Assembly: GCA_035559675.1 (NCBI GenBank)
Contig: DATMAZ010000220.1
Span: forward strand, 11,024-75,023
Length of the DNA stretch: 64,000 nucleotides
Source: Candidatus Limnocylindria bacterium
Lineage (GTDB): Bacteria; Desulfobacterota; Binatia; DP-6
Reading direction: 5' to 3'
Below the pieces are notes generated by a model, which was not told the origin of the DNA, ran no database searches, and saw only the letters and a program-made list of their open reading frames with translations. This document shows, piece by piece, positions 20,296-45,254 of this stretch. The first letter of the stretch is position 1. Each line of letters starts with the position of its first letter. Position numbers and translations under genes: made by a program.

Positions 20296-22170
20296 CTACG
20301 CCGCGCGGCGGGCGTGCTGGTCGCCGGCCGGGACCACGGGAAGCGCCACCCGGAAAGTGGCGCCGCGGCCCGGCGCGCTCTCGAGCTCGATCGAGGCCCC
20401 GAGCTGCTCGGCGAAGCGCCGCACGATGTAGAGCCCGAGCCCGGTGCCGCCGAAGCGGCGGGCGTCCGAGCCGTCGCCCTGACGGAACATCTCGAAGATG
20501 ACTTGCTGGTCTTCGGGACGGATGCCGATGCCCGTGTCGGCGACGGACACCACGAGGCGGTCGCCCGCGACGTGCAGCGCGGCGCGGACGTGGCCCTGGG
20601 GCGTGAACTTGAGGGCGTTGCCCACGAGATTGCGGATGATGACGCGGAGCTTGTGCGGATCGGTACTGATCGTGAGGTTCGGGACGGGTCCGCCCCATTC
20701 GAGCCGCACGCCCTCCTGGCGCGGGATGGCGGCGCAGGTCTGCCCGAGGTCCGCCCAGAACGCCGGCAGCCGCACGGTCTCGATGCGCACCGGCGAGCGC
20801 TGGGCCTCAAGCTTGCCGACCTCCAGCGTGCTTTCGATCAACGTCAGCAGCTCGCGCCCGGCTGCTTCGATGCGATCGAGGCAGCGCATGCGCTCGGCCG
20901 GCTCGAAGCCGGGGTCGCGTGCCATGTCGGCGAAGCCCAGGATCACGTTGAGCGGCGTGCGCAGCTCGTGGGAGACCGTCGACACGAACTCCGACTTGAG
21001 CCGGCTCGTTTCCCGCAGATCGGCGAGCAGCCGCGCTGTCTGGAGGGCCAGGGCGGCGGGATCGGCCAGCCGCTCGGCCAGCTCTCGCTCCATGTCGGCG
21101 AACGGCCACCGCCGCGTCCAGACGATCACGCCGAGCCTCTCGATGCCGCGCTGCAGCGCCAGGTACAGGGCCCGCACGTCCGGCTGCAGGGCGAAGACGC
21201 GGCCGAGCTCGCTGTCCGACGCATCGCCGGGCATCGACAGTACGCCGCGGCCGAAAACGTCTGCAAGCAACGGCGAGTCGCACGGCACCTCGAAGCCGAG
21301 GAACTGCTCGGCGAGCGCGGGCGCATCCCCGCCTGCATGCGTCACGCGGACCACGCGGGAGCCGTCGGCGGCGGACGTCACCTGCGCCACGAGGCAGACG
21401 TCGGCCGGGATGAGCGTGCCGGCGTGCGCGAGCAGGCGGGCGGCAACGTCAGACGGCTGCGCTTGCTCCGTCAGCTCGTGGCCGAACGCCGCGAGACGGG
21501 CCTGCTGCCAGGCCTGCACGTAGCAGGTACGCCGGTAGCGATCGAGGTGCGCAGCGCCTACCACGCCGACGAGCGATGCGCTTACCACCATCGACAGCAG
21601 CGCGGAGCTGTCGCCCAGGCTGCCGAGCCAGAGGCCGCCGTACACGACGACCACCGCCCCCCCGAGAATTGCCTGCGGCACGGCGCCCCACGGCACGAGG
21701 ATGGCGAGACCCATCACGGTGGCGCAGAGCGCCGCGACCGTGATCGCGATGCCGTCGGGGATCATCCTGCCGTACACGCTGAGCGTGAGCGTGATGCCGA
21801 TGCCGAAGGCGACGGCGATGGGACGCGGATGGCGACGCCCCACGGGCGAGAGCGTCGCGAGCCCGATGCCGACGCTGAGCGCGAGGAACACGCCCAGGAA
21901 CTTGAGGCGCAGCGCTTCGGCCTCCGGCCGCGCCAGCGCCACGTCGGCGCACGCGACCACCAGACAAAGCACGCACAGCGCCGCGGCCCAGCGCGTGCGC
22001 CAGGCGATGGCCGCGCCGCGCTCGGCCTCGTAGGCTGCGTCCCAGGCGGTCGCTCGTGTGCGCCCCGGCATCTCGCGGCGAACACAGCAATGCACGTGCC
22101 ACGGCGTGCGGCGGATCGGCGTGGCCATGCGGCCGCGATCCTCGCGGTGCACGCGCGCGGCGGGCGTCAC
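20296..22170 (-). CDS. Membrane-bound sensor histidine kinase
   Basis: N-terminal multi-TM region, then HisKA (FVSTVSHELRTPLN) and HATPase_c (N, G1 DTGIGI, G2 GGTGLGL) boxes. The start is ambiguous among 22170, 22128 and 22071. Confidence 0.8.
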   Translation of the reverse strand: MTPAARVHREDRGRMATPIRRTPWHVHCCVRREMPGRTRATAWDAAYEAERGAAIAWRTRWAAALCVLCLVVACADVALARPEAEALRLKFLGVFLALSVGIGLATLSPVGRRHPRPIAVAFGIGITLTLSVYGRMIPDGIAITVAALCATVMGLAILVPWGAVPQAILGGAVVVVYGGLWLGSLGDSSALLSMVVSASLVGVVGAAHLDRYRRTCYVQAWQQARLAAFGHELTEQAQPSDVAARLLAHAGTLIPADVCLVAQVTSAADGSRVVRVTHAGGDAPALAEQFLGFEVPCDSPLLADVFGRGVLSMPGDASDSELGRVFALQPDVRALYLALQRGIERLGVIVWTRRWPFADMERELAERLADPAALALQTARLLADLRETSRLKSEFVSTVSHELRTPLNVILGFADMARDPGFEPAERMRCLDRIEAAGRELLTLIESTLEVGKLEAQRSPVRIETVRLPAFWADLGQTCAAIPRQEGVRLEWGGPVPNLTISTDPHKLRVIIRNLVGNALKFTPQGHVRAALHVAGDRLVVSVADTGIGIRPEDQQVIFEMFRQGDGSDARRFGGTGLGLYIVRRFAEQLGASIELESAPGRGATFRVALPVVPAGDQHARRAA

Positions 22171-25940: not shown

Positions 25941-27698
25941 TCAGCGTACGACGCGGCGTGCGGGGTCGTAGCGGTAACGCGCGTGGAGCACCGGGTCGAG
26001 CATGAAGCCGGCGGCGAGATCGCCCTCGCGCCGCCAGCGCAGCGCGGGATTCGGATACGGCGTGCACGGCAGCGGCGCGGCGCCGCAGGCCTCGATGCCG
26101 AGCGGGACGTTCACCACGCCGCCGGTCTCGAGGCGCCGGGGCTCCCAGCGGATCGGGCTGGTCACCTCGAAGTCGCGGAGGTCGAGCCAGAGCGGGTCGA
26201 GCCCGGCGCGCAGCGTGGCGGCGGTGGCGACGGCGGCCACCGCGAGCAGCACCGGGCGAAGGGGGCTCCGCGCCCGCCAGGCGCGCTCGCCGGCCGCGAG
26301 CAGGATGCCGATCGCCGCCAGCACCCACACGGTGGCGCCCGCGTACCGCGGCACGGGGGACATGACGAGGCAGAAGACGAGCGAAGCGAGCGCGGGCACC
26401 ACGAGCGCGATGGGCAGCGCCGGCGCCGGCAAGCCACCGAGCCGACGCGCGAGCCGCACGGCAAGCGCGTAGCCGCACCCGGCGAGGCCGACGACGATGG
26501 GGCCGAGCACGTCCGGGGCCTGCCATCCCCAGTTGCGCAGAATGCCGGCGAACCACATCGGCGAGCGCACGATGGCGCGCCAGCCGCCGACGTACACGGT
26601 GTTGCGCAGCCAGCCCTCGACGTCGGTGCCGACCCGCCAGTCGACCGGCAGCGCGATCACCGCGCTCGGATAGAAGGGCAGCCCGCTCATGATGACGTTG
26701 CGGACGATCCAGGGGACGATCGCGGCGAGCCCGATGCCGGTGAGCACGGCGATTTGGCGGGCGCCGTCCCGCGCGCGGGGGCGCTCGGCCGCCAGGTAGA
26801 GGCCGAGGCCCACCAGCAGCGCGCCCGCGGCGAAGCCCGCGAACGAGAGCTTCACGGTGACGCCCGTCACGGCGAGCAGCGTGGCCGCGCGCAGGTGGAC
26901 GAGGCGCCGCGACGGCGCGTCGACCGCCAGCGCCAGCAGCTCCGCGGCGACCACGGTCCCGAGCGCGAAGACGCCGACGTCGGGATTGGGGCTGGTGAGC
27001 CAGATGCTCACCACCAGCGCGAAGATGCCGGGGGCGACGAGCACGTAGAAGACGTCGACCGGCCCCGTGGCGCGTCCGAGGCGCAGCGTGCGCCAGGCGG
27101 CGAGCGCCACGCGCAGACCGAGCGCCAGCGCGAGCAGCCCGTTTGCCAGGTGGTGCGAGCGTCCGGCGAACGGCCCGGCCTCGAGTGCGGCGACGTAGCC
27201 GAAGTACGACTGGTTGAGCGCATAGTGCGCGTGGAGGTTCCCCAGCCCCGGCACGATCCGCTGCTCCACCAGCCAGCGGACCGTAGGGACGAAGTAGGCC
27301 GCGACGTCGCCGTAGCGGGCGCCGGCGAGCGCGTGGTTCGACACCCACACCGCGAGCAGCACGGCCGCGGCCAGCGCCGGCGCGTCGCGGACGGCGCCGC
27401 GCGCGAGCGCGCGCCACGGCGTAAGGCCGCCGGCGACGAGCCCGATCGCGCCCGCGAGCAGGCAGGCGGCGCGTGCCGCGTCGTCGATGGGACGGGCCAG
27501 GTGCCAGACCTGCAACCCGAGCAGCAGCGCCGCCCAGCCGAGCCAGAAGCAGTCGAGCAGCTCCCCCGCATCCCGCGCCGCGGCCCCGGCCGCCCGCCGA
27601 ACCAGCAACCCGATCCCGACGAGGACGAGCGCCACCACCGCCCACGCCTCCAGTACCAGCAGCTGCGCGCCGGCCAGCACGGCGGGGAAGCCTACCAT
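25941..27698 (-). CDS. Large polytopic integral membrane protein of unknown function
   Basis: 585 aa with more than 12 predicted hydrophobic helices and a periplasmic-looking C-terminal domain. It lies directly upstream of the DUF2889-like gene. Confidence 0.55.
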   Translation of the reverse strand: MVGFPAVLAGAQLLVLEAWAVVALVLVGIGLLVRRAAGAAARDAGELLDCFWLGWAALLLGLQVWHLARPIDDAARAACLLAGAIGLVAGGLTPWRALARGAVRDAPALAAAVLLAVWVSNHALAGARYGDVAAYFVPTVRWLVEQRIVPGLGNLHAHYALNQSYFGYVAALEAGPFAGRSHHLANGLLALALGLRVALAAWRTLRLGRATGPVDVFYVLVAPGIFALVVSIWLTSPNPDVGVFALGTVVAAELLALAVDAPSRRLVHLRAATLLAVTGVTVKLSFAGFAAGALLVGLGLYLAAERPRARDGARQIAVLTGIGLAAIVPWIVRNVIMSGLPFYPSAVIALPVDWRVGTDVEGWLRNTVYVGGWRAIVRSPMWFAGILRNWGWQAPDVLGPIVVGLAGCGYALAVRLARRLGGLPAPALPIALVVPALASLVFCLVMSPVPRYAGATVWVLAAIGILLAAGERAWRARSPLRPVLLAVAAVATAATLRAGLDPLWLDLRDFEVTSPIRWEPRRLETGGVVNVPLGIEACGAAPLPCTPYPNPALRWRREGDLAAGFMLDPVLHARYRYDPARRVVR

Positions 27699-30239: not shown

Positions 30240-31397
30240 ATGACGCCCGACGGGCTGCGGGTCATGGACAGCGACATGCACGTGCTGGAGCCGCCCGACC
30301 TCTGGCAGCGCTACATCGACCCGGCGTTCGCTCACGTGGCGCCCGTCGGTCTCACCGAGATGCCGCGCGACATGCGGGTGCGGGTGAAGTCGCACGTCAT
30401 GCTGAAGCTCGGGCCGGTGCGGCCGCGCGCCGCCGGTGCCAAGGCGTGGAGCAGCGAGCAGGACCGGGTGTTCGCCGACGCCGAGCGGCGCGGCTGGGAC
30501 GCCGACTCGCAGTGCCATGCGATGGACGCGGAGGGCCTCGACCAGGCGGTCCTCTTTCCGAGCCGCGGGCTCTTCGTGCTCGGCCTCGACCTCCCGCAGG
30601 TGGTGGGACTCGACGGCCTCGAGCCCGAGTTCGCCGCCGCCATCGCGCGCGCCTACAACGACTGGCTCCACGACTTCTGCCGCCGCGATCCCGCCCGCCT
30701 CCTCGGCGCGGGCATGGTGGCCCCCCACGACGTGACCAGCGCGGTGGCCGAGACGCGCCGCTGCGCGGAGACGCTCGGCATGAAGACCGTGTTCCTGGCG
30801 CCCGGCTGCGTCGGCCGGCGGCCCTGGCACGATCCGTACTACGACCCGCTCTGGGCGGAGTGCGAGCGGCTCGGCATCGCGCTCACCTTCCACGGCGGCG
30901 GCCAGACCAACTTGAAGCCCGACTTCTCGCTGGAAGTGCTCGACAAGCTCATGATGTGGCACACCTTCAACCAGCCACTCGGCATCATGGCCGTGGCCGT
31001 GAGCCTGACGGCTGGCGGCGTCCTCGAGCGCTTTCCCCAGCTGCGCGTCGGGCTGCTGGAGGGCAACTGCGGCTGGGCGCCCTGGCTGCTGCAGCGCCTC
31101 GACGAGCACTGGGAATGGGTGGGGGCGTACGAGGCGCCGGAGCTCACCATGAAGCCGTCCGAGTATTTCCGCCGCAACTGTTACCTCTCCGTCGAGGCGG
31201 ACGAGCAGTCGGTGAAGTACTACGTCGACGCCTACGGCGACGAGAACCTGGTCTTCTCGACCGACTACCCGCACGCCGACTCGAAGTACCCGCGCTCGGT
31301 GGCGACGTTCCGCACGCTGCCCCTGTCCCCGGACTCGCAGCGAAAGATCCTCTGGGACAACTGCCGGCGCCTCTACGGCCTTCCGGTCGGCCCATGA
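30240..31397 (+). CDS. Amidohydrolase-2 family metal-dependent hydrolase (ACMSD-like)
   Basis: MDSDMHVLEP...HGG...STDYPHAD shows the PF04909 fold signature. Its stop overlaps the next start as ATGA. Confidence 0.7.
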   Translation: MTPDGLRVMDSDMHVLEPPDLWQRYIDPAFAHVAPVGLTEMPRDMRVRVKSHVMLKLGPVRPRAAGAKAWSSEQDRVFADAERRGWDADSQCHAMDAEGLDQAVLFPSRGLFVLGLDLPQVVGLDGLEPEFAAAIARAYNDWLHDFCRRDPARLLGAGMVAPHDVTSAVAETRRCAETLGMKTVFLAPGCVGRRPWHDPYYDPLWAECERLGIALTFHGGGQTNLKPDFSLEVLDKLMMWHTFNQPLGIMAVAVSLTAGGVLERFPQLRVGLLEGNCGWAPWLLQRLDEHWEWVGAYEAPELTMKPSEYFRRNCYLSVEADEQSVKYYVDAYGDENLVFSTDYPHADSKYPRSVATFRTLPLSPDSQRKILWDNCRRLYGLPVGP

Positions 31398-33544
31398 CCG
31401 GGCTCGGCGCCGCCGTCGCGCTGGCAGCCGCGCTGCTGGCCGGACCCGCGGCGGCGACGGCGGTTGCGCCCGTGGTGACGGTCACCACGCGCGGCCCGAA
31501 GATCGTCGTGCGCAGCGAGGCCGCGGAAGCCGTCGTGCGGCGCAAGCACGTGCGGCTCGTCGTGCGGGACCGCTCCACCCGCAAGCGGCTGCTTCGCGAG
31601 CGGGCGCAGGGCGGCCTCTTCTACGAACGCGCCGGGGTGGTCCACGAGCTCGGCCGCGTGACGGCAGCGGAGGTGGTGCCGGGCGGGGTGGCGCTCGTGG
31701 TCGAGACGGACGAGGGCGCGCCCGCCACGCTCACGCTGCGCTTTCAGACGGCGCGCACCCTCGTGGTGGCGCTCGATCCGCCCGATCCCGAGACCGTGGA
31801 GGCGTTCGGCGAGCGGCTGCGCTCGCCGCGCAACGAGGCGATCTACGGGCTGACCTCGCGGCTCCGCGACTCGCCGCCGCTGGTGCCGGGCGTGATCGAC
31901 ATCCCGGCCGACGACGTGATGCCGCCGGAGGTGGGCTCGCTCGACCGGCGCGGCGAGAGCATCGAGATGCGGATCATGCCGACGTTCAGCCTCTACGCGC
32001 CGTTCTTCCAGTCGTCGCGCGGCTACGGGCTCGCGGTGGAGGGCACCACCTTCGGGCGCTTCGACGTGGCACAGAGCGACCCGCGCATCGTGAGCTTCCG
32101 CTTCGAGGCCGGGACGACCCCCGCCTCGCGGCGCCTCGTGTATCGAGTGTTCGTCGGCCCCGAATACGCCACGATACTCGACGAGTACACGAACGCCACG
32201 GGCCGGCCGATCGTGCCCCCGGACTGGACCTTCCTCCATTGGCGCTGGCGCGGCGAACTCACCTTGGGCCCGACGGCGCTGCTCGATGGGCTCCCGGTGA
32301 ACGCCGACGTCGCCGACGACGTGCTGAGCTACGAGGCCTACGGCATCCCGCCGGGTGTCTACCTCTTCGATCGTCCGGTGATGCCCGGCAACTTCGGCTT
32401 CGCCCGCTTCGAGTGGGACGAGGTGCGGCTGCCGAACCCCACCCACATGCTGGACGCGCTCCGGCGGCGCGGCTACCGCTTGGCCGTCTGGAGCAGCACC
32501 TGGGCCTGCGGCGCCGGGCCGGGCGACAACGGCACCGAGGCGCAAGCGCTGGGCTTCCTCGCGCCCGACCCCACCGAGCCGCCCCCGCCTCCCAACTGCG
32601 CCGACGTCGGCGGCACGAGCTTCATCCTGGACGTCACCAACCCGGCAGCGCGAAGCTGGTTCGCCGGCAAGCTCGCCGCCTTCCTCGCCGCCTACGGCCT
32701 CCAGGGCGTGAAGCTCGATCGCGGCGAGGAGCACATTCCGTCCGAGGCGAGCGACATCTGGGCCGATGGGCGCACGGGCCGCGAGGTCCGCAACGACTAT
32801 CCGCGGCTGCAGGCCATGCTGCACCACGAGGCGCTGTCGAGCGCGTTCCCGGACGGCGACTTCTTCCTGGTGACGCGCTCGGCGTACACGGGTACCGCGC
32901 CGTGGGCCGTGTTCTGGGGCGGCGACATCCCGGCCAGCGAGAACTTCGGCGCCGGGGCGGGGACCGACCTCGGGCTGCGCAGCGCGATCATCAGCCAGCA
33001 GCGGGCGGCCTTCATGGGGCTGCCCATCTGGGGCTCGGACACCGGCGGCTACTACGAGTTCAAGGACCGGGAGGTCTTCGCGCGCTGGATCGAGTTCAGC
33101 TGCTTCTCGGGCCTGATGGAGATCGGCGGGGTGGGCGAGCACGCGCCGTGGCGCATGCCGACGACGCCGGCCCTCGACACGGAGCTGATCGACATCTACC
33201 GTCGCTACACGGTGCTCCGCCACACACTCCAGCCGTACATCGTGGCCGCGGCCACCGAGGCGGCCCGCGGCATGCCGATCGTGCGGCCGATGCCGTTCGA
33301 GGATCGGCGGGACCGCCGGCTGCGGGACCGCTGGGACCAGTACCTCTTCGGGCCCGATCTGCTGGTCGCGCCGGTGTGGCGGACGGGCGAGCGCCAGCGC
33401 GAGGTCTACCTGCCGCGCGGGCGGTGGCGGAACTACTTCGACCGCGCGCAGGCGATCGACGGGCCGGCGTTTCGCACCGTGGACGTGCCGCTCGACGCGA
33501 TCGCCGTGTACGTGCGCGACGGCGCCGAGGTGCCCGGCCCATGA
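31394..33544 (+). CDS. Glycoside hydrolase family 31 (alpha-glucosidase/alpha-xylosidase-like), secreted
   Basis: Signal peptide. GH31 catalytic region (VKLDRGEE, WGGDIPAS, IWGSDTGGYY). It is embedded in the artefactual 1584 aa ORF 28790..33544. Confidence 0.8.
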   Translation: MTGLGAAVALAAALLAGPAAATAVAPVVTVTTRGPKIVVRSEAAEAVVRRKHVRLVVRDRSTRKRLLRERAQGGLFYERAGVVHELGRVTAAEVVPGGVALVVETDEGAPATLTLRFQTARTLVVALDPPDPETVEAFGERLRSPRNEAIYGLTSRLRDSPPLVPGVIDIPADDVMPPEVGSLDRRGESIEMRIMPTFSLYAPFFQSSRGYGLAVEGTTFGRFDVAQSDPRIVSFRFEAGTTPASRRLVYRVFVGPEYATILDEYTNATGRPIVPPDWTFLHWRWRGELTLGPTALLDGLPVNADVADDVLSYEAYGIPPGVYLFDRPVMPGNFGFARFEWDEVRLPNPTHMLDALRRRGYRLAVWSSTWACGAGPGDNGTEAQALGFLAPDPTEPPPPPNCADVGGTSFILDVTNPAARSWFAGKLAAFLAAYGLQGVKLDRGEEHIPSEASDIWADGRTGREVRNDYPRLQAMLHHEALSSAFPDGDFFLVTRSAYTGTAPWAVFWGGDIPASENFGAGAGTDLGLRSAIISQQRAAFMGLPIWGSDTGGYYEFKDREVFARWIEFSCFSGLMEIGGVGEHAPWRMPTTPALDTELIDIYRRYTVLRHTLQPYIVAAATEAARGMPIVRPMPFEDRRDRRLRDRWDQYLFGPDLLVAPVWRTGERQREVYLPRGRWRNYFDRAQAIDGPAFRTVDVPLDAIAVYVRDGAEVPGP

Positions 33545-34548
33545 GCTGGGGCGGCGTGACAACCTTTACGCCGCTGTTCCCCGCGGACACGGCGGCGGCC
33601 ATGGTGGCGCTCTGCGAGCGCTTCGGCAGTTACGGGATGTATTCGGAGGAGCCGACGTTCGCCGGCCTGGGCGAGGGCCTGCCCGCCCGCTGGGACGCCG
33701 TGCGCAACTTCCTCAAGACCGGCGATCGAGTGGGGCGCCGGGAGCCGCTCGAGGTGCTGGCGGCGCGCACGAACTACTTCCGGGAGACGTACGCCTACGG
33801 GGCCGCGCCCGCCATCGACGGCATCGAGCCGTTCCTCTTCCACGAGGGCTTCGTCGAGGCGGCCCGCCGGCTCCACGGCCGGCCCGTGGTCGAGCCGGCC
33901 ATCGTGTTCGCGAACCTGCTCGTCCCCGGCCAGGAGCTCGCCGTCCACACCGACGTCCCCGAGTTCCGCGGCGTGAGTCGCAAGAGCCATCCCCAGTGGC
34001 TGATCGTGGTGATGCGGCACAGCGGCCTCTTCGAGGCCTGGCGCATGCCGATCGCCACCGCGGTCGCCTGGTTCCACGACTGCACGGGCGGGGAGTTCGT
34101 CTACTACCCGGACGGCCCCGAGGCGCCCCCGGTGGCGCATCCCGTTCGCTACAACACGGCGCTGCTGCTCGATACCGACAGCGTCTTTCACGGCGTGGCC
34201 CCCCTCGCCGAGCCGGGGACCGAGATCGCACCGCTCCGCCCCGGGATGCGGCTCACCGCCGCCGGCGGGGGCTGGTGGGAGGTCCGGGACGGCGAGCGGC
34301 GCGTCGCGCGCTACCGCTGGGAGGATCTGCGCTTCTCCGTCTCGTGGAAGGCCTACTGCTTCGCCGACGAGGCGGAGCGTCGCCTGTGGGCCGAGCACCG
34401 GGACGATCTCACGGTCGACGCCGTGGTCGAGCGCCTCCTCGAGGACCTCCGCGCCCGCGGCGTGGTCGGCGCCGACGTGCCGCGCGGCAACGAGCTGGTG
34501 GACCTGTTGATCGACACGTACGTGCGCTACCCGAAGCCCACCGCCTGA
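33541..34548 (+). CDS. Conserved hypothetical protein with an HxD...H motif, paralog B
   Basis: ATGA-coupled to the GH31 gene. Contains AVHTDVPEFRG...VFHGVAP and the FVYYPDGPE and SVSWKAYCFADEAERRLWAEH blocks shared with 15079..16065. Confidence 0.65.
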   Translation: MSWGGVTTFTPLFPADTAAAMVALCERFGSYGMYSEEPTFAGLGEGLPARWDAVRNFLKTGDRVGRREPLEVLAARTNYFRETYAYGAAPAIDGIEPFLFHEGFVEAARRLHGRPVVEPAIVFANLLVPGQELAVHTDVPEFRGVSRKSHPQWLIVVMRHSGLFEAWRMPIATAVAWFHDCTGGEFVYYPDGPEAPPVAHPVRYNTALLLDTDSVFHGVAPLAEPGTEIAPLRPGMRLTAAGGGWWEVRDGERRVARYRWEDLRFSVSWKAYCFADEAERRLWAEHRDDLTVDAVVERLLEDLRARGVVGADVPRGNELVDLLIDTYVRYPKPTA

Positions 34549-34666: not shown

Positions 34667-36613
34667 GTGGGCGTCGCCCGGATGAAGGGACCGGAGCCAG
34701 CGCGCGCGAACGGAGTGCGCGCTCCGTGGACGATCGAGCGGAGCGTCGAGCTCTACCAGGTGCGTGGCTGGGGTGACCCGTACTTCAGCGTGAACGAGCG
34801 CGGGCACGTCTCGGTGCGCCCCGACCCGCAGCGCGAGACCACCATCGACCTCGCCGACCTGGTAAACGACCTCGAGGCCCGCGGGCTGCAGCTGCCGCTG
34901 CTTGTGCGCTTCTCGGACATCGTCGACGATCGCATCCGCACCATCAACGAGTGCTTCCGGCGCGCCATCGAGGAGTACGGCTACGAGGGACGCTACAAGG
35001 GCGTCTACCCGGTGAAGGTCAATCAGCAGCGCCATCTGATCGAGGAGGTGGTGCGCTACGGGCAGCGCTGGGAGTTCGGCCTCGAGGCCGGCAGCAAGCC
35101 CGAGCTGCTGATCGCGCTCGCCATGGCCGAGGGCTCGGGGCTGATCGTCTGCAACGGCTACAAGGACCTCAACTACATCGAGACGGCGCTGATCGCGCAG
35201 CGCTTCGACAAGACGGTCATCGTCGTCCTCGAGCGCATCGAGGAGCTCGACCTGCTGTTCAAGGCGGCCGACCGCCTCGGCATCACGCCCATCGTCGGCG
35301 TGCGCGCCAAGCTGTCGGCCCGCGGGGTCGGGCGCTGGGCCGACTCGACGGGCGACCGCGCCAAGTTCGGGCTCACCAGCCAGGAGATCGTCGAGGTGGT
35401 CGACCGGCTGGCGGCCCGCAACATGCTCGGCTCGCTGCAGCTGCTGCACTTCCACATCGGCAGCCAGATCTCGAGCATCATCCCGGTGAAGAACGCCATC
35501 CGGGAGGCCGCGCAGTACTTCGTCGAGCTCTCCAAGATGGGCGCGCCCATGCGCTACCTCGATGTGGGCGGCGGCCTCGCCGTCGACTACGACGGCTCGC
35601 GCACCGACTTCCACGCGTCGCGCAACTACGGGGTGCAGGAGTACGCCAACGACGTCGTCTCCGGCATCCAGGAGGCCTGCGGGCGGGCCAAGCTGCCCGT
35701 GCCCACCATCGTCAGCGAGAGCGGACGCGCGATCGCCGCCTATCAGGCGGTCCTGGTCTTCGAGGTGCTGGGGTCCAACGAGGCGCGCGTCGAGGAGCCC
35801 ACGCCCCCGCCGCCCGACGCGCACCCCCTCCTGCACACGCTCTACGACACCTACAACGGCATCCAGCCGAAGAACGTGCAGGAGGCGTGGCACGACGCCA
35901 GCCAGGCGCGCGACGAGGCGGAAAGCCTCTTCCAGTACGGCTACATGGGGCTGCGCGAGCGGGCGGCCGCCGAGAAGCTGGTGATCGCCTGCGGGCGCAA
36001 GATCCTGGCCACGGCCCAGCGCATGGGGCCGCTCCCCGAGGATCTGCTCGCGCTCGAGCGGCTGCTCTCAAGCATCTACTACTGCAACTTCTCCGTCTTC
36101 CAGTCGGCGCCCGACACCTGGGCGATCGATCAGCTCTTTCCGATCATGCCGATCCAGCGGCTCGACGAGGAGCCCACCGAGCAGGTGACGCTCGGCGACC
36201 TCACCTGCGACAGCGATGGGGTAATCGACCACTTCATCGACGTGGAAGAGGTGAAGGACGTGCTCCGCGTGCACCGGCTCCGCGAGAACGAGTCGTACCG
36301 TATGGGCATGTTCCTCATGGGCGCCTACCAGGAGATCCTGGGCGACCTGCACAACCTCTTCGGCGACACCAACGCCGTGCACGTGCGGGTGAACGACCAC
36401 GGCTACGACGTGACGCACGTGATCAAGGGCGACTCGATGAACCAGGTGCTGCGCTACGTGCAGTACGACCCCGAGGTGCTGACCGAGCGCATCCGTCAGC
36501 AGGCCGAGCGTGCGTTGGCGGCCGGCCGCATCACGCTCAACCAGATGAAGCTGCTGCTCGAGCACTACGAGCAGAGTCTCCGCAGCTACACCTACCTCAC
36601 CGACGAGGAGTGA
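34667..36613 (+). CDS. speA: Biosynthetic arginine decarboxylase
   Basis: Full-length similarity to SpeA (VYPVKVNQQRH, PLP Lys, HFHIGSQI, EPGRAIAA). A GTG at 34667 or an ATG at 34682 could start it. Confidence 0.9.
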   Translation: MGVARMKGPEPARANGVRAPWTIERSVELYQVRGWGDPYFSVNERGHVSVRPDPQRETTIDLADLVNDLEARGLQLPLLVRFSDIVDDRIRTINECFRRAIEEYGYEGRYKGVYPVKVNQQRHLIEEVVRYGQRWEFGLEAGSKPELLIALAMAEGSGLIVCNGYKDLNYIETALIAQRFDKTVIVVLERIEELDLLFKAADRLGITPIVGVRAKLSARGVGRWADSTGDRAKFGLTSQEIVEVVDRLAARNMLGSLQLLHFHIGSQISSIIPVKNAIREAAQYFVELSKMGAPMRYLDVGGGLAVDYDGSRTDFHASRNYGVQEYANDVVSGIQEACGRAKLPVPTIVSESGRAIAAYQAVLVFEVLGSNEARVEEPTPPPPDAHPLLHTLYDTYNGIQPKNVQEAWHDASQARDEAESLFQYGYMGLRERAAAEKLVIACGRKILATAQRMGPLPEDLLALERLLSSIYYCNFSVFQSAPDTWAIDQLFPIMPIQRLDEEPTEQVTLGDLTCDSDGVIDHFIDVEEVKDVLRVHRLRENESYRMGMFLMGAYQEILGDLHNLFGDTNAVHVRVNDHGYDVTHVIKGDSMNQVLRYVQYDPEVLTERIRQQAERALAAGRITLNQMKLLLEHYEQSLRSYTYLTDEE

Positions 36614-36701: not shown

Positions 36702-38510
36702 GTGGCACTCGACATTCTAACTCGCCTACGGGGGCGTGCGGGTGACGCGCCGGACGGGCCGCCGACGCTGCCGCTCGCGCCGGCGGCGCCCTTCGCCTTT
36801 TTGCCGATCGCCGGGGTGGACGGCGCGGTCGAGCTCGTCGTGCGCGGGCGGGTGTACGCGCCGCTCGTCCCGGAGCTGCGCCGGGCGTTCGAGCGGCGTC
36901 GCGATGCGGGCGCACGCCACCTGGTGGTCGACGCCACCGCCTTGGAGCAGGTCGATTTCGCCGGCATCGGTTTGCTGGCCGACATGCTGGGCGACGTGTG
37001 GGCCGCGGGCGGCGGCATGGTCATCTACGGGCTCGACCCGCGGATCGAGCGGATGCTCGAGATCACCCAGCTGCGCAGCGTCATGCCGACCGCGGCCGAT
37101 CGCACGCAGGCGCTGGCCCGCATCGGCGACGCGCCGGCCGGCGTCGATCCGGCGACCTTCGACCGCATCCGGCGGCACATCCGGGTGGTGGCCAATGCCG
37201 GGGCCGAGCAGCCCCCCGGCGAGGAGTTGCCGCGGCAGGCGCTCGCGCGCGTGGCGTACGACTACTTCGTGCGGTGGGTGACCGAGCGCGGCATCCCGAA
37301 TCGCGACGACGCATGGGACCGGCTTCGCGCCGAGGCCACGGTGCTGGTGCAGCGGCTGGCGCGCGACGCCGGCTTTGCTTGCTCCCCGGAGGACTGCGCT
37401 CAGGTGGCGGCGCTGCTGGTCTCCGATCTCTGCGGCTTGGGGCCGATCCAGGCCTTCCTCGACGATCCGCTGGTGACGGAGGTCATGGTGAGCGGCGCCG
37501 GCGACGTGCTGATCGAGCGCGCCGGGGCGCTCGAACGAACGGACGTCCGGTTCCGCGACAACGAGCACCTGATGCACACCATCCGCCGCATCGCCGAGCG
37601 GGTCGGTCGCCGCATCGACTTCGCCAACCCGTCGCTCGACGCGCGGCTCGACGACGGCTCGCGCGTGCACGCGCTCGTGCCGCCGGTCGCCATCGACGGC
37701 CCCACGCTCAGCATCCGGAAGTTCGGCGTGCAGTTCCGGCAGCTCGAGGATCTCATCGTGGGCGACATGCTGAGCCCGGACATCGCCTACTATCTCGGCG
37801 CCTGCGTGAAATCGCGCTTGAACGTCGTCATCGGCGGGCCGGCGGCGTCGGGCAAGACGACGCTGCTGCAGGCGCTGGCGGCGCAGGTGCCGCTGCGGGA
37901 GCGGCTGGTGACCATCGAGGAGATCACCGAGCTCGATCTGTCCGAGGTCCACCCGAACGTCGTGCGGCTGCAGGCTCGGCAGGCGAACACCGAAGGGAAG
38001 GGCGAGGTGACGATCCGGCAGCTGGTGCGCGAGGCGCTGCGCATGCGAGCCGATCGCATCCTGGTGGGCGAGGCGCGGGGCGCCGAGATGATCGAGGTGC
38101 TGCAGGCCATGCGCTGCGGGCACGACGGCTCGATGACCACGATCCACGCGTCGTCGCCGTCCGATTTGATCGAACGCGCCACCACCATCGCGCTGTTCGC
38201 CAACCTCGGCCTGTCCGACGATGCGGTCCGGCGAATGGTGATCGACGCGCTCGACGTGATCGTCTTCCTCTACCGGTTCGCCGACGGCCATCGCCGCGTC
38301 GTGCGCGTGACCGAGCCGTACCGTACGGCGCAGGGCGACGTCGCGCTGAACGACGTGTTCACGTTCGACCACGAGGGCTACGACGCCGCGGGGCGCGTGC
38401 AGGGTGGGTTCCGGCTGATCGGCCCGTCCCGCTTCGACGATCGTTTCCGCCGCCAGGGCATCGAGGTGCCGTGGGCGGTCTTCGCGCGGGGCGTGCCGGC
38501 CGCGGACTGA
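36702..38510 (+). CDS. CpaF/TadA-type secretion ATPase with an N-terminal STAS (anti-sigma-antagonist-like) domain
   Basis: GTG start. Residues ~20-125 form a STAS fold (HLVVDATALEQVDFAGIGLLADM...MVIYGLDPRIERMLEIT). Residues 260-602 carry the CpaF core (GGPAASGKTT Walker A, DRILVGEARG Walker B, His box MRCGHDGSMTTIHA). Confidence 0.8.
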   Translation: MALDILTRLRGRAGDAPDGPPTLPLAPAAPFAFLPIAGVDGAVELVVRGRVYAPLVPELRRAFERRRDAGARHLVVDATALEQVDFAGIGLLADMLGDVWAAGGGMVIYGLDPRIERMLEITQLRSVMPTAADRTQALARIGDAPAGVDPATFDRIRRHIRVVANAGAEQPPGEELPRQALARVAYDYFVRWVTERGIPNRDDAWDRLRAEATVLVQRLARDAGFACSPEDCAQVAALLVSDLCGLGPIQAFLDDPLVTEVMVSGAGDVLIERAGALERTDVRFRDNEHLMHTIRRIAERVGRRIDFANPSLDARLDDGSRVHALVPPVAIDGPTLSIRKFGVQFRQLEDLIVGDMLSPDIAYYLGACVKSRLNVVIGGPAASGKTTLLQALAAQVPLRERLVTIEEITELDLSEVHPNVVRLQARQANTEGKGEVTIRQLVREALRMRADRILVGEARGAEMIEVLQAMRCGHDGSMTTIHASSPSDLIERATTIALFANLGLSDDAVRRMVIDALDVIVFLYRFADGHRRVVRVTEPYRTAQGDVALNDVFTFDHEGYDAAGRVQGGFRLIGPSRFDDRFRRQGIEVPWAVFARGVPAAD

Positions 38511-38545: not shown

Positions 38546-39895
38546 TCACCGGCCGGCGCTCGTCCCGGAGGGCGCCTCCCAGAGGTGCTCGCGCGTCTCG
38601 GCGGCGATCACGCCGCTCAGCGCGAGCAGCGCCACGAGATTCGGGACGGCCATGAGCCCGTTGGCAATGTCGGCGAACGCCCAGACGGCCCGCAGGGAGG
38701 CGACCGAGCCCACCATCACGGCGAGCACCCACAGCACCCGGTACGGGCGGATGGCGGCGACGCCGAAGAGATACTCGGCGGCCTTCTCCCCGTAGTAGGA
38801 CCAGCCAAGGATGGTGGAGAACACGAAGGTGAGCAGCCCTATGGTGAGCACGATGGGGCCGACCACGGGCAGGTCGGCGAAGGCCGCCGTGGTGAGCGCC
38901 GCGCCGCCGATCCCCTGGGTCCATTCGCCCGAGTTCACCACCACGAGCCCGGTAAGCGCGCACACCACCACGGTGTCCCAGAACGTGCCGGTGGCCGACA
39001 CCAGCGCCTGGCGCACCGGGGTCGTGGTCCGGGCGGCGGCGGCGACGATGGGCGCGCTGCCGAGCCCCGACTCGTTCGAGAAGAGGCCGCGCGCCACGCC
39101 GTAGCGGATGGCGTCGCGCATGGCGGCGCCGGCGAAGCCGCCGACCGCCGCCTGCCCGGTGAACGCGCTCGAGACGATCAGCCGCAGCGTGTCGGGGAGC
39201 GCGGCGGCGTTGGTGACCAGCAGCACGGTGCAGCCGACGACGTAGAAGAGCGCCATGAACGGCACCAGCGCCTCGCACACGCGCGCGATCGAGCGGATGC
39301 CGCCCAGGGTGACGACGGCGGTGGCGACGGTCATGAGGGCGCCCGAGATCCAGGGGCTCACCTGGAACGTCTCGTGCGCCAAGGACGCGATGGCGTTGGC
39401 CTGCACCATGTTGCCGATGCCAAAGGCGGCGACGGCGGTGAACGCGGCGAACGCGACGCCGAGCCAGCGCTGCCCGAGCCCGCGCTCGAGCACGTACATC
39501 GGCCCGCCGGCCATCGTCCCTGCCGGCGTGCGGATGCGGTATTTGATGGCGAGCACCGCCTCGCCGTACTTGGTAGCGATGCCGAACACGCCGGTGAGCC
39601 ACATCCACAGCACCGCGCCCGGGCCGCCGGAGGCGACGGCGGTCGCCACGCCGACGATGTTGCCGGTGCCGATCGTGGCGGCGAGCGCGGTGACGAGCGC
39701 GCCGAAGTGGCTCACGTCGCCTTCGCCCTCGGGATCGCGCTGCACCGAAAGGCGGATCGCGCGCCCCATGTAGCGCTGGATGAAGCGCAGGCGAACCGTG
39801 AGGAAGAGGTGCGTGCCGACCAGCAGCACGAGCAGCGGTGGGCCCCACACGAGGTCGCTCACGCGGCCGAGAAACTGCTCGAGCCCCTGCATCAT
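38546..39895 (-). CDS. Alanine/glycine:cation symporter (AGCS family)
   Basis: MMQGLEQFLGRVSDLVWGPPLL...GTGNIVGVATA...GGPGAVLWMW are AGCS signature blocks, with 11 TM helices. Confidence 0.85.
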   Translation of the reverse strand: MMQGLEQFLGRVSDLVWGPPLLVLLVGTHLFLTVRLRFIQRYMGRAIRLSVQRDPEGEGDVSHFGALVTALAATIGTGNIVGVATAVASGGPGAVLWMWLTGVFGIATKYGEAVLAIKYRIRTPAGTMAGGPMYVLERGLGQRWLGVAFAAFTAVAAFGIGNMVQANAIASLAHETFQVSPWISGALMTVATAVVTLGGIRSIARVCEALVPFMALFYVVGCTVLLVTNAAALPDTLRLIVSSAFTGQAAVGGFAGAAMRDAIRYGVARGLFSNESGLGSAPIVAAAARTTTPVRQALVSATGTFWDTVVVCALTGLVVVNSGEWTQGIGGAALTTAAFADLPVVGPIVLTIGLLTFVFSTILGWSYYGEKAAEYLFGVAAIRPYRVLWVLAVMVGSVASLRAVWAFADIANGLMAVPNLVALLALSGVIAAETREHLWEAPSGTSAGR

Positions 39896-39949
39896 CCCCA
39901 CCTCCGACGTTTCGGCTCCTACCACGGCAGACAGCCGCGTAAAACCCGC

Positions 39950-41941: not shown

Positions 41942-42838
41942 ATGACGACGGCGCTTGTTGTGCTGGCCGGGCTCGCGGCCGTTGCCGCCGGCGTGTGGCT
42001 CGGCCGGCGGCTCACGGAGGTGGAGCGGCAGCTCCCGGAGATCCGTCGTATTCGCCGGGAGCTCGGCGAGCTGCGCGAGGAGCTCGAGCGCGCGCTGGCG
42101 GTCACCCGCGACCACTTGGCGCGCACGATCGCCGGCGAGCCGCCGGAGCCCGACGTCGCACGCCGCGGGCAGGCGTGGACGGATCTCCAGGCGGCCCCGG
42201 CGCTGGTGCTCTACGAGCGCAACCCCGACCTGTTCGTCCTCGACGTGCGCACGGAGGCCGAGTTCGCCCGCGGTCACATCCCGCGCGCCACGCTCATCCC
42301 GGTCGACGAGCTTGAGGACCGGCTCCGCGAGCTGCCGGCACGGGACGTGCCGATGCTGGTCACGTGCGCGGCGGGCGGCCGCAGCCAGGCGGCCTGCCAG
42401 ACGCTGGCGCGACACGGCTATACCCGGCTCTACAACCTGGTGGGCGGCATGCATGCCTGGGCCGGCCCGCGCGTCGAGGCCGAGCCCGAAGCGCCGCCGC
42501 CCGGCATGCTGGAGGGCACGAGGATCACGCATCGAGGGGGCCCGATCTCGGCCGAGCAGGTCGTGGCGGCGCTCCGCGAGTGCTACGATCCCGAGATCCC
42601 GCTCAACATCTTCGACCTCGGGCTTGTCTACGACATCGACATCCAGGACGCTGGCATCGCCATTACCATGACGCTCACTTCCGAGAGCTGCCCCTCGGCG
42701 CGGACCATCCCCGAGGACGTCCGCCGGCGCGTGAGCGCGCTCGGCCAGCCCAACGTCACCGTCGACGTCGTCTTCGCCCCCCCGTGGCACCCCGCCCGCA
42801 TCAGCCCCGACGGCAAGCAACGCCTCGGTCTCGCGTAG
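41942..42838 (+). CDS. Membrane-anchored rhodanese-domain sulfurtransferase fused to a DUF59/MIP18 (SufT-like) Fe-S assembly domain
   Basis: N-terminal TM helix and coiled-coil. Rhodanese active-site loop VTCAAGGRSQ, then DUF59 (VVAALRECYDPEIPLNIFDLGLVYDIDI...ITMTLTSESCP). Confidence 0.7.
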   Translation: MTTALVVLAGLAAVAAGVWLGRRLTEVERQLPEIRRIRRELGELREELERALAVTRDHLARTIAGEPPEPDVARRGQAWTDLQAAPALVLYERNPDLFVLDVRTEAEFARGHIPRATLIPVDELEDRLRELPARDVPMLVTCAAGGRSQAACQTLARHGYTRLYNLVGGMHAWAGPRVEAEPEAPPPGMLEGTRITHRGGPISAEQVVAALRECYDPEIPLNIFDLGLVYDIDIQDAGIAITMTLTSESCPSARTIPEDVRRRVSALGQPNVTVDVVFAPPWHPARISPDGKQRLGLA

Positions 42839-43169: not shown

Positions 43170-45254
43170 CTACGCGTGGGCGCGGGTCGGCTTGGCGGCG
43201 GACGTCGCGCGGGCCGTCCGGGCCTGGAGCCCGGCGAGGCAGCTGCGGAGCGCATCGAGGCCGAACGGCTTCTGCAGGAAGTGCAGCGAGGTGTGCTGCG
43301 CCAGCCGGCGGCTCAGATCCTGGGTGGCGTAGCCGCTCATGACGACGATGGGCAGCAACGGCCAGCGCTGACGGACGGTGGCGGCCAGGTCCTCGCCGCT
43401 CATGCCGGGCATCGCCATGTCGAGCAGCACGACGTGCAGGGCGGCCGCGTTGGCGTCCAGGATCGCGAGCGCCGCCTCCCCGTCGCTCGCCGGCACCACC
43501 TCGCAGCCGAGCCGGCGCAGCATGTGGGCGGTCGTGAGCCGCACACCCTCGTCGTCGTCGACCAGCAGCGCGCGCAGCGGGCGCTCGAGCACCGGGCCGG
43601 GGGCGGGGCGGGTGGGGGCGCGCGCCGGCTCGTCGCTGCCGGCCGGGAAGCTCACTGTGAACTCGGTCCCCACCCGCGGCGTGCTGCGCACCGTGATGGT
43701 GCCGCGGTGGGCGTCGACCAGCTTGCGCACGATCGCGAGCCCGATGCCGCGCCCGCGCGCCTTGGTGGTGAACGCCGGCTCGAAGATGCGCGCCTGCATG
43801 GCCGGGGTCATACCGACGCCGGTGTCGCTCACCGTGAGCTGAAGCCAACCGGCGCAGCCATTGGCGCCTCGGCCGACGCGCACCTGTACGCGGCCTGGAC
43901 GGTCGCCGACGGCTTCGCCCGCGTTCAAGAGGAGGTTCATCACGATCTGCCGCAGCTGCGTCGGGTTGCCGCGCATCGGCGGCAGGCCCGGCTCGACGTC
44001 GAATTCGACGCGGACGTTTGGCGGGATCGCGGGGCCGAGGAGCGCGGCCGTCTCGTGCGCGAGCGCACCGAGGTCGACCGGCTCGTCGCTGCTGCGCCGC
44101 GAGTCCGCCGCGTCGAGCATGTCGCGCGCCAGGTCGGCCGCGCGCTGGGCCGTCGCCTGGATCGCTTCGAGGCGCACCCGCAGTGCCTCGGGTGTGGAAA
44201 GCTCATGGAGCGCGAGGTCGCTGTGGGCGAGAATGCCTGTCAGCAGGTTATTGAAGTCGTGCGCCACCTCGCCGGGGAGCAGCGTGCGCTCGGTCGGCGG
44301 CCGCCGGGCGGCGCGCAGCCGCTCGATCTCTTTGGCCGCCAGCGACGCCAGCACGTGCAAGAGCGGGAAGGACCGCAGGCCCTCGTGCAGCGGGCGGTTG
44401 TGCAGCACGCCTACGTGCCCGATGGGCTGCCCGTGGCGATCGTGCAGCGCCACGCCCAGGTACGCCTGCGCGCCGGTGCGCTGTACGTGGGCGTCCCGCG
44501 GGTAGAGCCGCTGCAGGTCGCGCGTGTGGAGCACCACGTCGCGCTCGTAGACGAGCGCGCATGGCGTGTCGGCGAGCGCGTACTCGACGTTGGGGGCGAG
44601 CCCGTCGCGTTCCCAGATCGCCAGCGTGCGGGCATGGCGCGGCGGGTCGTCGAGCAGCTCGGAGACGAAGGCGGTGTGCACGTCGAGGGCGCGCGCGAGC
44701 TGTTCGACGAGGCGCAACAGCGCGTCGTTCGAGCGCGCGGCCGCGGCCGTTTCCGTCAGCAGGCGCTGCTCCCGCTGCACCCGCCGGAGCTCGAGGTCGC
44801 CGCTGGCGCGGGCGCGCACCCCGAGCAGCATGCGGCGGACGTGCTCCGGGTGGCGGAACGGCCTGGTGTCGAGCACGCCCAGCAGGCCGAGCGGACGCCC
44901 GTCGTCGTCGCTCAGCCGCAGACACGCGATGCTCTCGATGCCGAGCGCCTCGTAGATCGGGACGCCGGGAAAGCGCGTGCGCGCATGCTCCGGGCACCAG
45001 TGGAAGCCGTCGGCGTCCGGCGGCTCGGCGGCTGGAGTGCCGTCGAGCTCGTACACGTACGGCGTGTGGTCGATCGCGTGCGTGTCCTCGCTGGTGGCGA
45101 GCACGTGCAGCCGCGTTGCGTCGTCGCCGGTGAACTCACCGATGAACGCGTAGCGGACATCGAGGGCTTCACGCAGCCGCGTGACCAGCCAGTGGAAGAA
45201 CGGCGTGCCGGGCGCGCACCGCAACCCGTCGACGAGCGCGTCGGGATGGGTCAT
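43170..45254 (-). CDS. Hybrid sensor histidine kinase/response regulator with tandem GAF domains
   Basis: Two GAF-like regions, HisKA (VAHDFNNLL), HATPase_c (NLLLNAGEA, DTGVGM, GRGIGL), and a C-terminal REC domain (LLVDDDEGV...D...LDMAMPGMSG...K). Confidence 0.85.
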   Translation of the reverse strand: MTHPDALVDGLRCAPGTPFFHWLVTRLREALDVRYAFIGEFTGDDATRLHVLATSEDTHAIDHTPYVYELDGTPAAEPPDADGFHWCPEHARTRFPGVPIYEALGIESIACLRLSDDDGRPLGLLGVLDTRPFRHPEHVRRMLLGVRARASGDLELRRVQREQRLLTETAAAARSNDALLRLVEQLARALDVHTAFVSELLDDPPRHARTLAIWERDGLAPNVEYALADTPCALVYERDVVLHTRDLQRLYPRDAHVQRTGAQAYLGVALHDRHGQPIGHVGVLHNRPLHEGLRSFPLLHVLASLAAKEIERLRAARRPPTERTLLPGEVAHDFNNLLTGILAHSDLALHELSTPEALRVRLEAIQATAQRAADLARDMLDAADSRRSSDEPVDLGALAHETAALLGPAIPPNVRVEFDVEPGLPPMRGNPTQLRQIVMNLLLNAGEAVGDRPGRVQVRVGRGANGCAGWLQLTVSDTGVGMTPAMQARIFEPAFTTKARGRGIGLAIVRKLVDAHRGTITVRSTPRVGTEFTVSFPAGSDEPARAPTRPAPGPVLERPLRALLVDDDEGVRLTTAHMLRRLGCEVVPASDGEAALAILDANAAALHVVLLDMAMPGMSGEDLAATVRQRWPLLPIVVMSGYATQDLSRRLAQHTSLHFLQKPFGLDALRSCLAGLQARTARATSAAKPTRAHA

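Follow-up and report, generated by a model that had tools for sequence, protein, structure and literature searches.

A STAS domain fused to a CpaF-like ATPase in a Candidatus Limnocylindria bacterium, a probable relic of a partner-switching module

The window considered here is a stretch of 64,000 nucleotides (64 kb) from the genome of a Candidatus Limnocylindria bacterium (assembly GCA_035559675.1, contig DATMAZ010000220.1, positions 11,024 to 75,023). Limnocylindria is a class within the Chloroflexota. The window includes, at positions 36702-38510, a gene whose product combines an N-terminal STAS domain, of the type found in the partner-switching proteins SpoIIAA and RsbV, with an ATPase similar to the Tad pilus ATPase CpaF. 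In unfused relatives the two parts are encoded by adjacent genes, lying in the most complete loci between the gene for a PP2C phosphatase and that for an RsbW-like kinase. We consider that the Limnocylindria gene is probably (with a rough probability of 0.6) a hard-wired, phosphorylation-independent relic of such a module, in which the STAS domain would bind the ATPase directly. This reading is drawn from comparisons of sequences, predicted structures and gene order.

The fused gene and its product

The open reading frame (ORF) begins with a GTG codon, ends with TGA and encodes 602 amino acids (AA). Long spurious ORFs are common in the window because of its GC content of about 72%. The codon-position signature of this ORF (GC3 0.93, GC2 0.47) is that of a real gene. 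The GTG start is supported by the conservation of the N-terminus, VALDIL(T/S)RLR, in a 69%-identical homolog (P0002). The protein is identical to the NCBI entry HWP67369.1 (ATPase, T2SS/T4P/T4SS family, Candidatus Limnocylindria bacterium) and a further identical copy is found on a Logan contig (L001). A promoter/terminator scan revealed no promoter-like site near the gene, and its single terminator-like match inside the ORF is at chance level. The full-length AlphaFold (AF2) model has a mean predicted local distance difference test (pLDDT) score of 89.5 and a predicted template modelling score (pTM) of 0.68. The following features can be distinguished.

36702-38510, plus strand: whole gene, 602-AA protein with STAS domain, three-helix bundle and CpaF-like ATPase (Pfam STAS and T2SSE)
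36702-36791, plus strand: N-terminal leader, residues 1-30, a short helix (2-10) followed by a Pro/Ala-rich stretch (pLDDT 46-71)
36792-37121, plus strand: STAS domain of SpoIIAA/RsbV type, residues 31-140, b1-b2-a1-b3-a2-b4-a3-b5-a4 (Pfam, hhalign, Foldseek)
36954-36971, plus strand: degenerate phospho-site motif D85-F86-A87-G88-I89-G90 (alignments, models)
37122-37148, plus strand: short linker, residues 141-149, IGDAPAGVD (dip in pLDDT)
37149-37370, plus strand: three-helix bundle, residues 150-223, helices 150-167, 177-196 and 204-223 (AF2 secondary structure)
37386-37736, plus strand: ATPase N-terminal domain, residues 229-345 (alignment with CpaF 8rjf/9e24 from residue 233; Foldseek)
37737-38486, plus strand: ATPase catalytic C-terminal domain, residues 346-595 (PDB alignment, motif comparison)
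37836-37862, plus strand: Walker A, GPAASGKTT, residues 379-387
37908-37934, plus strand: Asp box, residues 403-411
38052-38072, plus strand: Walker B, DRILVGE, residues 451-457
38118-38147, plus strand: His box, GHDGSMTTIH, residues 473-482

The two parts could in principle have been joined artificially, by mis-assembly, frameshift or gene calling across two neighbours: in the split loci described below the genes overlap by 4 nt, so that a single-base error could fuse them. However, the ORF is uninterrupted in independent assemblies, including the identical Logan copy, and homologs with 53-69% identity occur on JGI, ENA and Logan contigs. Moreover, the fused proteins group coherently in the tree and have a phospho-site signature of their own. 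An artefact is already refuted by this recurrence and can for practical purposes be discarded.

The N-terminal domain is a STAS domain of the anti-sigma antagonist type

The Pfam STAS profile (PF01740) matches residues 38-134 with 41.9 bits, compared to a gathering cut-off of 22.6, and STAS_2 matches as well. A profile of the family STAS domains aligned by hhalign to Bacillus subtilis SpoIIAA with a probability of 97.4% (E 1e-11, 99 columns), and phmmer against PDB sequences retrieved SpoIIAA (1th8_B) at E 2e-4. The AlphaFold model of residues 29-150 (pLDDT 92.7, pTM 0.85) shows a b-b-a-b-a-b-a-(b)-a topology. Foldseek again matched it best to SpoIIAA structures (1th8_B/1tid_B, template modelling score 0.83-0.87, root mean square deviation 1.7-2.2 A), then to RsbV and other anti-sigma antagonists, with MlaB ranking lower (7ch8_L, E 6.5e-5). 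All four approaches agree on a STAS fold, which an earlier reading of the DNA letters (hereafter the sequence-only reading) had proposed for the first ~110 residues. The domain is indeed a bona fide anti-sigma-antagonist-type STAS, but its limits have to be shifted: the fold covers approximately residues 31-140, behind a 30-residue leader of low confidence.

The ATPase belongs to a discrete sister clade of CpaF

Pfam T2SSE matches residues 245-521 (E 7e-45). The nearest solved relative is CpaF of Caulobacter (8rjf/8rkd/9e24), with E 2e-85 by sequence and E 4e-45 by Foldseek; archaeal GspE, FlaI and VirB11 come next. As in CpaF/TadA, a three-helix bundle precedes an N-terminal domain and a RecA-like C-terminal domain with the four catalytic boxes (Walker A, Asp box, Walker B, His box), all of them intact, as previously remarked from the letters alone for Walker A, Walker B and the His box. 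The subfamily alignment shows that the three-helix bundle (residues 150-223) is also kept in the unfused relatives. The ATPases of the split loci align from about residue 150 of the query, and the linker thus meets their N-terminus.

The protein is nonetheless distinct from canonical CpaF. It passes none of the curated NCBIfam ATPase thresholds, the best being TIGR03819 with a score of 293.5 for a cut-off of 373.15. A search of a 5.8-billion-cluster protein database returned three tiers: nine STAS-fused homologs (53-69% identity, 576-885 bits), then some 50 unfused proteins of ~455 AA (55-61% identity over the ATPase part, ~550 bits), the named members of which come from metagenome-assembled genomes of Planctomycetota, and finally canonical CpaF (~45% identity to the query, ~350 bits). 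Loci of the upper tiers numbered only three in 185,579 species-representative genomes, all of them in Planctomycetota, and the next identity is at most 47%. From 1.84 billion representatives clustered at 50% identity, an exhaustive HMMER scan retrieved 4,467 T2SSE relatives at E <= 1e-30, in which the subfamily amounts to essentially two representatives, the fused protein of the window and a split one (P0059).

A neighbour-joining tree (437 ATPase columns, 200 bootstraps) places the STAS-associated ATPases in a monophyletic subfamily (100% bootstrap), sister to canonical CpaF. Identity ranges from 54 to 76% inside the subfamily and from 40 to 43% with canonical CpaF. Seventeen positions are fixed differently in the two groups (e.g. 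MRCGHDG instead of MNTGHDG, and GGPxxSGKT instead of SGGTGxGKT). Unlike CpaF/TadA, every subfamily ATPase has STAS as a partner, either fused or encoded separately, and neighbouring TadB/TadC genes were never seen. From these comparisons the window ATPase would probably be a catalytically competent, presumably hexameric, member of a rare and discrete CpaF/TadA sister clade.

Unfused relatives are encoded in a PP2C-STAS-ATPase-kinase cassette

The architecture of 26 subfamily loci was established with custom hidden Markov models. The operon of the unfused members successively encodes a SpoIIE-type PP2C (~350 AA), a STAS protein (~114 AA), the ATPase (~455 AA) and a HATPase_c_2 RsbW-like kinase (~140 AA). 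This full cassette is present in ten distinct loci (L006, L007, L009, L010, L011, L012, L093/L101, L095, L096 and L098), and four truncated contigs (L099, L100, L102, L103) also carry the kinase gene downstream of that of the ATPase. A second group of loci has the STAS-ATPase pair without kinase or phosphatase (L008 and L097, as well as L091 and L092 as far as the contigs reach). The third group comprises the fused genes (the window, L002-L004, L005, L090 and L094). No SpoIIE or HATPase_c_2 gene was detected in any fused locus or in any split locus of the kinase-less group, called split-Ala below from the residue at the phospho-site.

The standalone STAS proteins of the cassettes match the N-terminal domain of the window protein at E 1e-21 (38-45% identity), which identifies the fused domain as the ortholog of the operon STAS. 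In 12 of the 14 split loci the stop of the STAS gene overlaps the start of the ATPase gene, by 4 nt (ATGA or GTGA) or by 8 nt. Such an overlap suggests translational coupling and would allow fusion as a one-nucleotide event.

These sister loci therefore encode the complete set of PP2C, STAS with a DSSGL motif and HATPase_c_2 kinase known from RsbU-RsbV-RsbW and SpoIIE-SpoIIAA-SpoIIAB. They differ from these systems by the absence of a sigma factor and by the secretion-type ATPase inserted between STAS and kinase. The partner-switching link drawn in the sequence-only reading is thus real for the unfused orthologs, while the cognate enzymes are missing from the 64-kb window.

Apart from the cassette itself, the only features common to the Ser-type loci are lineage-level synteny and nearby Hanks-type Ser/Thr kinases. 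Every Ser-type cassette has genes for the latter (Pfam Pkinase) no more than a few kb away:

L006: 7207-8463 and 16967-18787
L007: 3577-5874 and 18168-20426
L009: 2126-4135 and 16235-19990
L010: 32-2908
L011: 8394-10589
L012: 1-1734, 8352-10343 and 10193-12502
L096: 7261-9090 and 9114-11237
L098: 1-1566

Hanks-type kinases are abundant in Planctomycetota, and this abundance alone may account for their presence. An FHA protein is also encoded near the cassette in L006. The N-terminal ~110 AA of the cassette PP2C have no Pfam match but are conserved across loci (ALPEIAVL...GVIAV...; genes at L006:8580-9650, L007:8573-9658 and L009:8629-9663) and could form an input domain, either sensory or pseudo-receiver. 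In three loci the gene directly upstream of the PP2C gene is that of an aspartyl-tRNA synthetase (L009:6899-8629, L012:1895-4624, L096:1933-3513), which looks like lineage-level synteny.

The phospho-site is degenerate wherever the kinase is missing

In SpoIIAA and RsbV the phosphorylated residue (Ser58 and Ser56, respectively) belongs to a D-S-S/T-G-L-G motif located where helix alpha2 begins. The corresponding stretch of the window protein reads VD-F-A-G-I-G. Phe86 (TTC, 36957-36959) aligns with these serines and is the first residue of helix alpha2 in the models; the following residue is Ala87. The nature of this position varies with the architecture of the loci. All ten distinct kinase-bearing loci exhibit the phospho-serine (QIDS[SA]GL), the four kinase-less split loci have Ala (ID-A-x-A-L), and none of the ten fused proteins has Ser or Thr, which are replaced by F, Y, C or A. 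Considering distinct loci with known context, the phospho-serine occurs in 10/10 with the kinase and in 0/8 without it (Fisher p = 2e-5). Asp or Glu, which would mimic phosphorylation, is found in no lineage. Ser-to-Ala replacement is the classic non-phosphorylatable, binding-competent state. A STAS-profile search of the 5.8-billion-cluster database returned standalone STAS only, as its index missed the fused forms, and does not represent a count of fusions. The 28 close standalone clusters carry Ala (24), Ser (3) or Thr (1) at the site, suggesting that the non-phosphorylatable split form is the commonest.

These data bear on the possibility that the fused STAS domain is still controlled by phosphorylation, a kinase and a phosphatase encoded elsewhere toggling the motor on and off. 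The sister loci do hold such enzymes beside STAS and ATPase, and the inspected part of the genome is limited to 64 kb. However, the acceptor position is occupied by Phe and followed by Ala, no SpoIIE or HATPase_c_2 gene accompanies any fused or split-Ala gene, and the site and the enzymes are lost together without exception. Control of this kind appears very unlikely and is largely refuted for the canonical site. The phosphorylation-type input that had been suggested for the window protein is therefore not supported: with no Ser/Thr at the site and no cognate enzymes in the 64 kb, this input belongs to the sister cassette clade rather than to the fused protein.

Phylogeny of the architectures

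Three clades emerge in the neighbour-joining tree of the subfamily: cassette-Ser (100%), split-Ala (100%) and a main fused clade (90%), the first two being sisters (92%). A second fused lineage (P0015/L094, from ENA and JGI data) is nested in the split-Ala clade (100%), and its nearest relatives (~80% identity) are unfused. Because of this position among unfused proteins, fusion must have occurred at least twice.

The kinase-less lineages keep different remnants of the DSSGL motif, D-F-A-G and D-A-x-A, a difference which argues for separate losses. The direction of change is supported by the Ser clade, which nearly matches the universal DSSGLG motif. From these sequence features we infer that the kinase, the PP2C and the serine were lost rather than gained late.

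Genomic context and the absence of Tad genes

The 55 genes called in the window were all scanned against Pfam. The two flanking genes are as reported in the sequence-only reading:

34667-36613, plus strand: speA, biosynthetic arginine decarboxylase, 88 nt upstream of the STAS-ATPase gene
38546-39925, minus strand: AgcS-type Na+/alanine symporter, convergent with the STAS-ATPase gene

The remaining genes have housekeeping and metabolic functions. None of the 55 encodes a T2SSF, CpaB/RcpC, secretin, Flp pilin, A24 peptidase or TadE domain according to Pfam, and an iterated TadB/C profile detected no TadB/C-like ORF in the 64 kb. The orphan status initially attributed to the gene, with no tad/cpa genes flanking it, is thereby upheld across the window. 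The same Pfam scan identified no SpoIIE phosphatase, HATPase_c_2 kinase or second STAS domain, and tblastn with the cassette proteins likewise revealed no kinase or phosphatase in the window (best E > 0.3).

The orphan state extends to the whole clade. Scored within ~6 kb of canonical CpaF genes, the TadB/C profile identified a neighbour in 66 of 77 loci (86%), compared to 0/26 subfamily loci, window included. The difference persists when only long distinct loci with full flanks are compared (45/52 canonical versus 0/12 subfamily loci, Fisher p = 1.5e-8). The subfamily DNA searched represents 253 kb over 14 loci of at least 9 kb, with the whole window included. The ORFs 3' of canonical CpaF genes correspond to Pfam T2SSF in 58 of 85 cases. 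Lack of TadB/C neighbours is therefore a family trait and not a peculiarity of this Limnocylindria genome. The fused loci have unrelated gene contexts, and no conserved fifth gene or shared neighbour was found among the subfamily loci. An Amidohydro_2 gene does occur upstream of the STAS and ATPase genes in three of them (window 30240-31397, at a distance of 5.3 kb; split-Ala loci L008:6872-8077 and L097:1326-2528), but these copies are only 28-30% identical and their presence is probably a coincidence. A defence-system function was also considered and dropped, since PADLOC matched neither the window protein nor any of the four proteins of the cassette.

Could the protein simply be an ordinary Tad/Flp pilus motor, serving a tad locus outside the window, with STAS as a minor lineage-specific decoration? 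CpaF is its best solved homolog, its catalytic boxes are preserved, canonical CpaF proteins commonly carry N-terminal FHA or ParA/MinD-like fusions, and the window is the only part of the genome examined. Several observations conflict with this explanation: the separate clade with its 100% bootstrap and 17 diagnostic substitutions, the failure to reach any NCBIfam ATPase cut-off, and the contrast between 0/26 and 86% for nearby TadB/C. In addition, a comparison across genomes shows tad-linked canonical CpaF in other Planctomycetota and Chloroflexota. An ordinary pilus motor is therefore unlikely. The trans-acting or non-pilus role that had been suggested for the gene is compatible with the lack of tad neighbours in the whole clade.

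A probable hard-wired derivative of a partner switch

In RsbV-RsbW-SigB and SpoIIAA-SpoIIAB-SigF it is the kinase that directly binds and inhibits the sigma factor. By the same logic, the ATPase might take the role of the sigma factor and be bound and inhibited by an RsbW-like kinase, with STAS only titrating the kinase; in cassette loci the kinase gene directly adjoins that of the ATPase. However, STAS would become useless once the kinase was lost, yet it is kept in every kinase-less lineage, where it remains coupled to the ATPase and has been fused to it at least twice. Sequestration of this type seems quite unlikely, and the same behaviour of the kinase-less lineages favours direct binding of STAS to the ATPase.

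The proposed ancestral module would operate as follows. Unphosphorylated STAS would sit directly on the ATPase; phosphorylation of its serine by the kinase would release it, and dephosphorylation by the PP2C would restore binding. The ATPase would thus be the target of the switch and STAS its output. The Limnocylindria lineage would then have lost the kinase and phosphatase together with the phospho-acceptor, and STAS, tethered to the motor, would have become a permanent, phosphorylation-independent subunit of the ATPase. Such a tethered domain is more likely to contribute to stability, assembly or activity than to be inhibitory, because permanent inhibition would be incompatible with strictly conserved catalytic motifs.

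Several points weigh against direct binding in a hard-wired protein. The pTM of the full-length model is only 0.68, and contact between STAS and ATPase is deduced rather than directly evidenced. Gene order and fusion would also fit two proteins that merely act in one pathway. The correlation between site and architecture is structured by clade, with three clades and few independent evolutionary events, and on the topology (Fused,(Ala,Ser)) simple parsimony would be equally satisfied if the Ser clade had gained kinase and PP2C once. The bulky Phe or Tyr of the fused proteins is not the classic Ser-to-Ala locked-on change. Finally, the negative results cover 64 kb, and a kinase, a phosphatase acting on another residue or a tad locus may lie elsewhere in the genome.

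The machinery or substrate driven by the ATPase is not encoded nearby in any subfamily member. The ATPase may act on a Tad-like apparatus encoded in another part of the genome or on a non-pilus target. It may tentatively be suggested, as a less probable extension of the hard-wired reading, that the subfamily represents a new non-pilus class of hexameric ATPases of the T2SSE superfamily, lacking the TadB/C platform and gated by direct STAS binding.

Comparison with known systems

A precedent for a STAS protein acting on an ATPase is provided by MlaB, whose alpha2 face directly contacts the MlaF ATPase; Thr52, the equivalent of the phospho-site, is at the centre of the interface (PMC7367683). 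MlaB is required for stability and assembly of MlaF, and the T52E substitution weakens binding (PMC7367683). The resemblance to the putative STAS-ATPase binding in the window protein is one of functional analogy. Furthermore, MlaF is the nucleotide-binding domain of an ABC transporter, whereas the window ATPase is of the T2SSE/PilB type, an unrelated fold, and MlaB is a minimal STAS without the last strand and helix and is not fused to MlaF.

Partner switches with a STAS output other than sigma control include Nostoc HmpU-V-W, Vibrio SypA/SypE, Bordetella BtrU-V-W and Rhodobacter RbaV (reviewed in PMC8256260). In them the signal reaches a non-sigma effector through the STAS protein and not through the kinase. 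In Nostoc, HmpV is the switch output for type-IV-pilus motility, acting via an undefined effector (PMC6495340). In contrast to these systems, where the effector is mostly undefined and lies outside the operon, here the ATPase is nominated by gene order, coupling and two fusions.

Additional N-terminal domains are common on CpaF-type ATPases, so that a regulated CpaF is not new as a general idea. FHA domains occur in P0216, P0298 and P0204 and ParA/MinD (TadZ/CpaE)-like domains in P0198, P0201, P0205 and P0226. These proteins belong to the canonical CpaF group, although the extra domain likewise precedes the three-helix bundle and the ATPase. STAS was seen as an N-terminal addition only in the subfamily described here. 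Other variations concern the C-terminus, with a Ribonuc_L-PSP/RidA domain in the CpaF-type ATPase P0315, and the number of modules, with tandem CpaF-like proteins of 816-1605 AA showing 2-4 matched stretches (P0013, P0014, P0179-P0189).

A search of 8 million full-text papers returned nothing relevant on STAS or partner switching in connection with CpaF, Tad, type IV pilus or secretion ATPases. The term STAS in a Caulobacter Tad cryo-electron tomography preprint referred to subtomogram averages, and matches to CPAF concerned the chlamydial protease. This points to a rare and undescribed pairing of STAS with a secretion-type motor ATPase.

Other features of the window

Two sensor histidine kinases are encoded in the window, a hybrid GAF-HisKA-HATPase_c-REC protein (43170-45254, minus strand) and a 624-AA HisKA-HATPase_c protein (20296-22170, minus strand). 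Neither is related to the RsbW-type kinase encoded in the cassettes. Directly upstream of speA, a 335-AA protein without Pfam match is encoded at 33541-34548 (plus strand); its gene overlaps the stop of a GH31 glycosidase gene by 4 nt. Another protein without Pfam match is a 585-AA Leu/Ala/Val-rich polytopic membrane protein (25941-27698, minus strand), the composition and strand of which explain the extreme AT skew (0.31) at 26-28 kb. Rhodanese and FeS_assembly_P (DUF59-type) domains are combined in one protein at 41942-42838 (plus strand). A short ORF at 12712-13233 (minus strand), the match of which to the DUF772 transposase profile is confined to the first 35 profile positions, is probably a transposase remnant.

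Significance of the STAS-ATPase pairing

The label pilus assembly protein CpaF, currently given to these proteins in databases, has no backing from their genomic context. The window protein probably represents a degenerate, hard-wired form, and more can be learned from its cassette-bearing relatives. The subfamily as a whole provides a natural mutant series for the mechanism, from the Ser cassette and the kinase-less Ala pair to the Phe/Tyr fusions.

Partner-switching modules are widespread, but in most of those without a sigma factor (HmpV, SypA, BtrV, RbaV) the target of STAS has no name. Gene order, start/stop overlap and two fusions designate one concrete candidate, the CpaF-like ATPase. 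On the more tentative non-pilus reading suggested above, the subfamily would be the first partner-switching system with a motor ATPase as its immediate output, and the Limnocylindria protein a natural locked-on, single-chain version of it. If the ATPase is indeed the target, the MlaB-MlaF precedent of STAS as an ATPase subunit would be extended to an unrelated ATPase fold, and the PilB/CpaF/VirB11 superfamily would gain a new form of post-translational control beside c-di-GMP, FHA and TadZ-type inputs.

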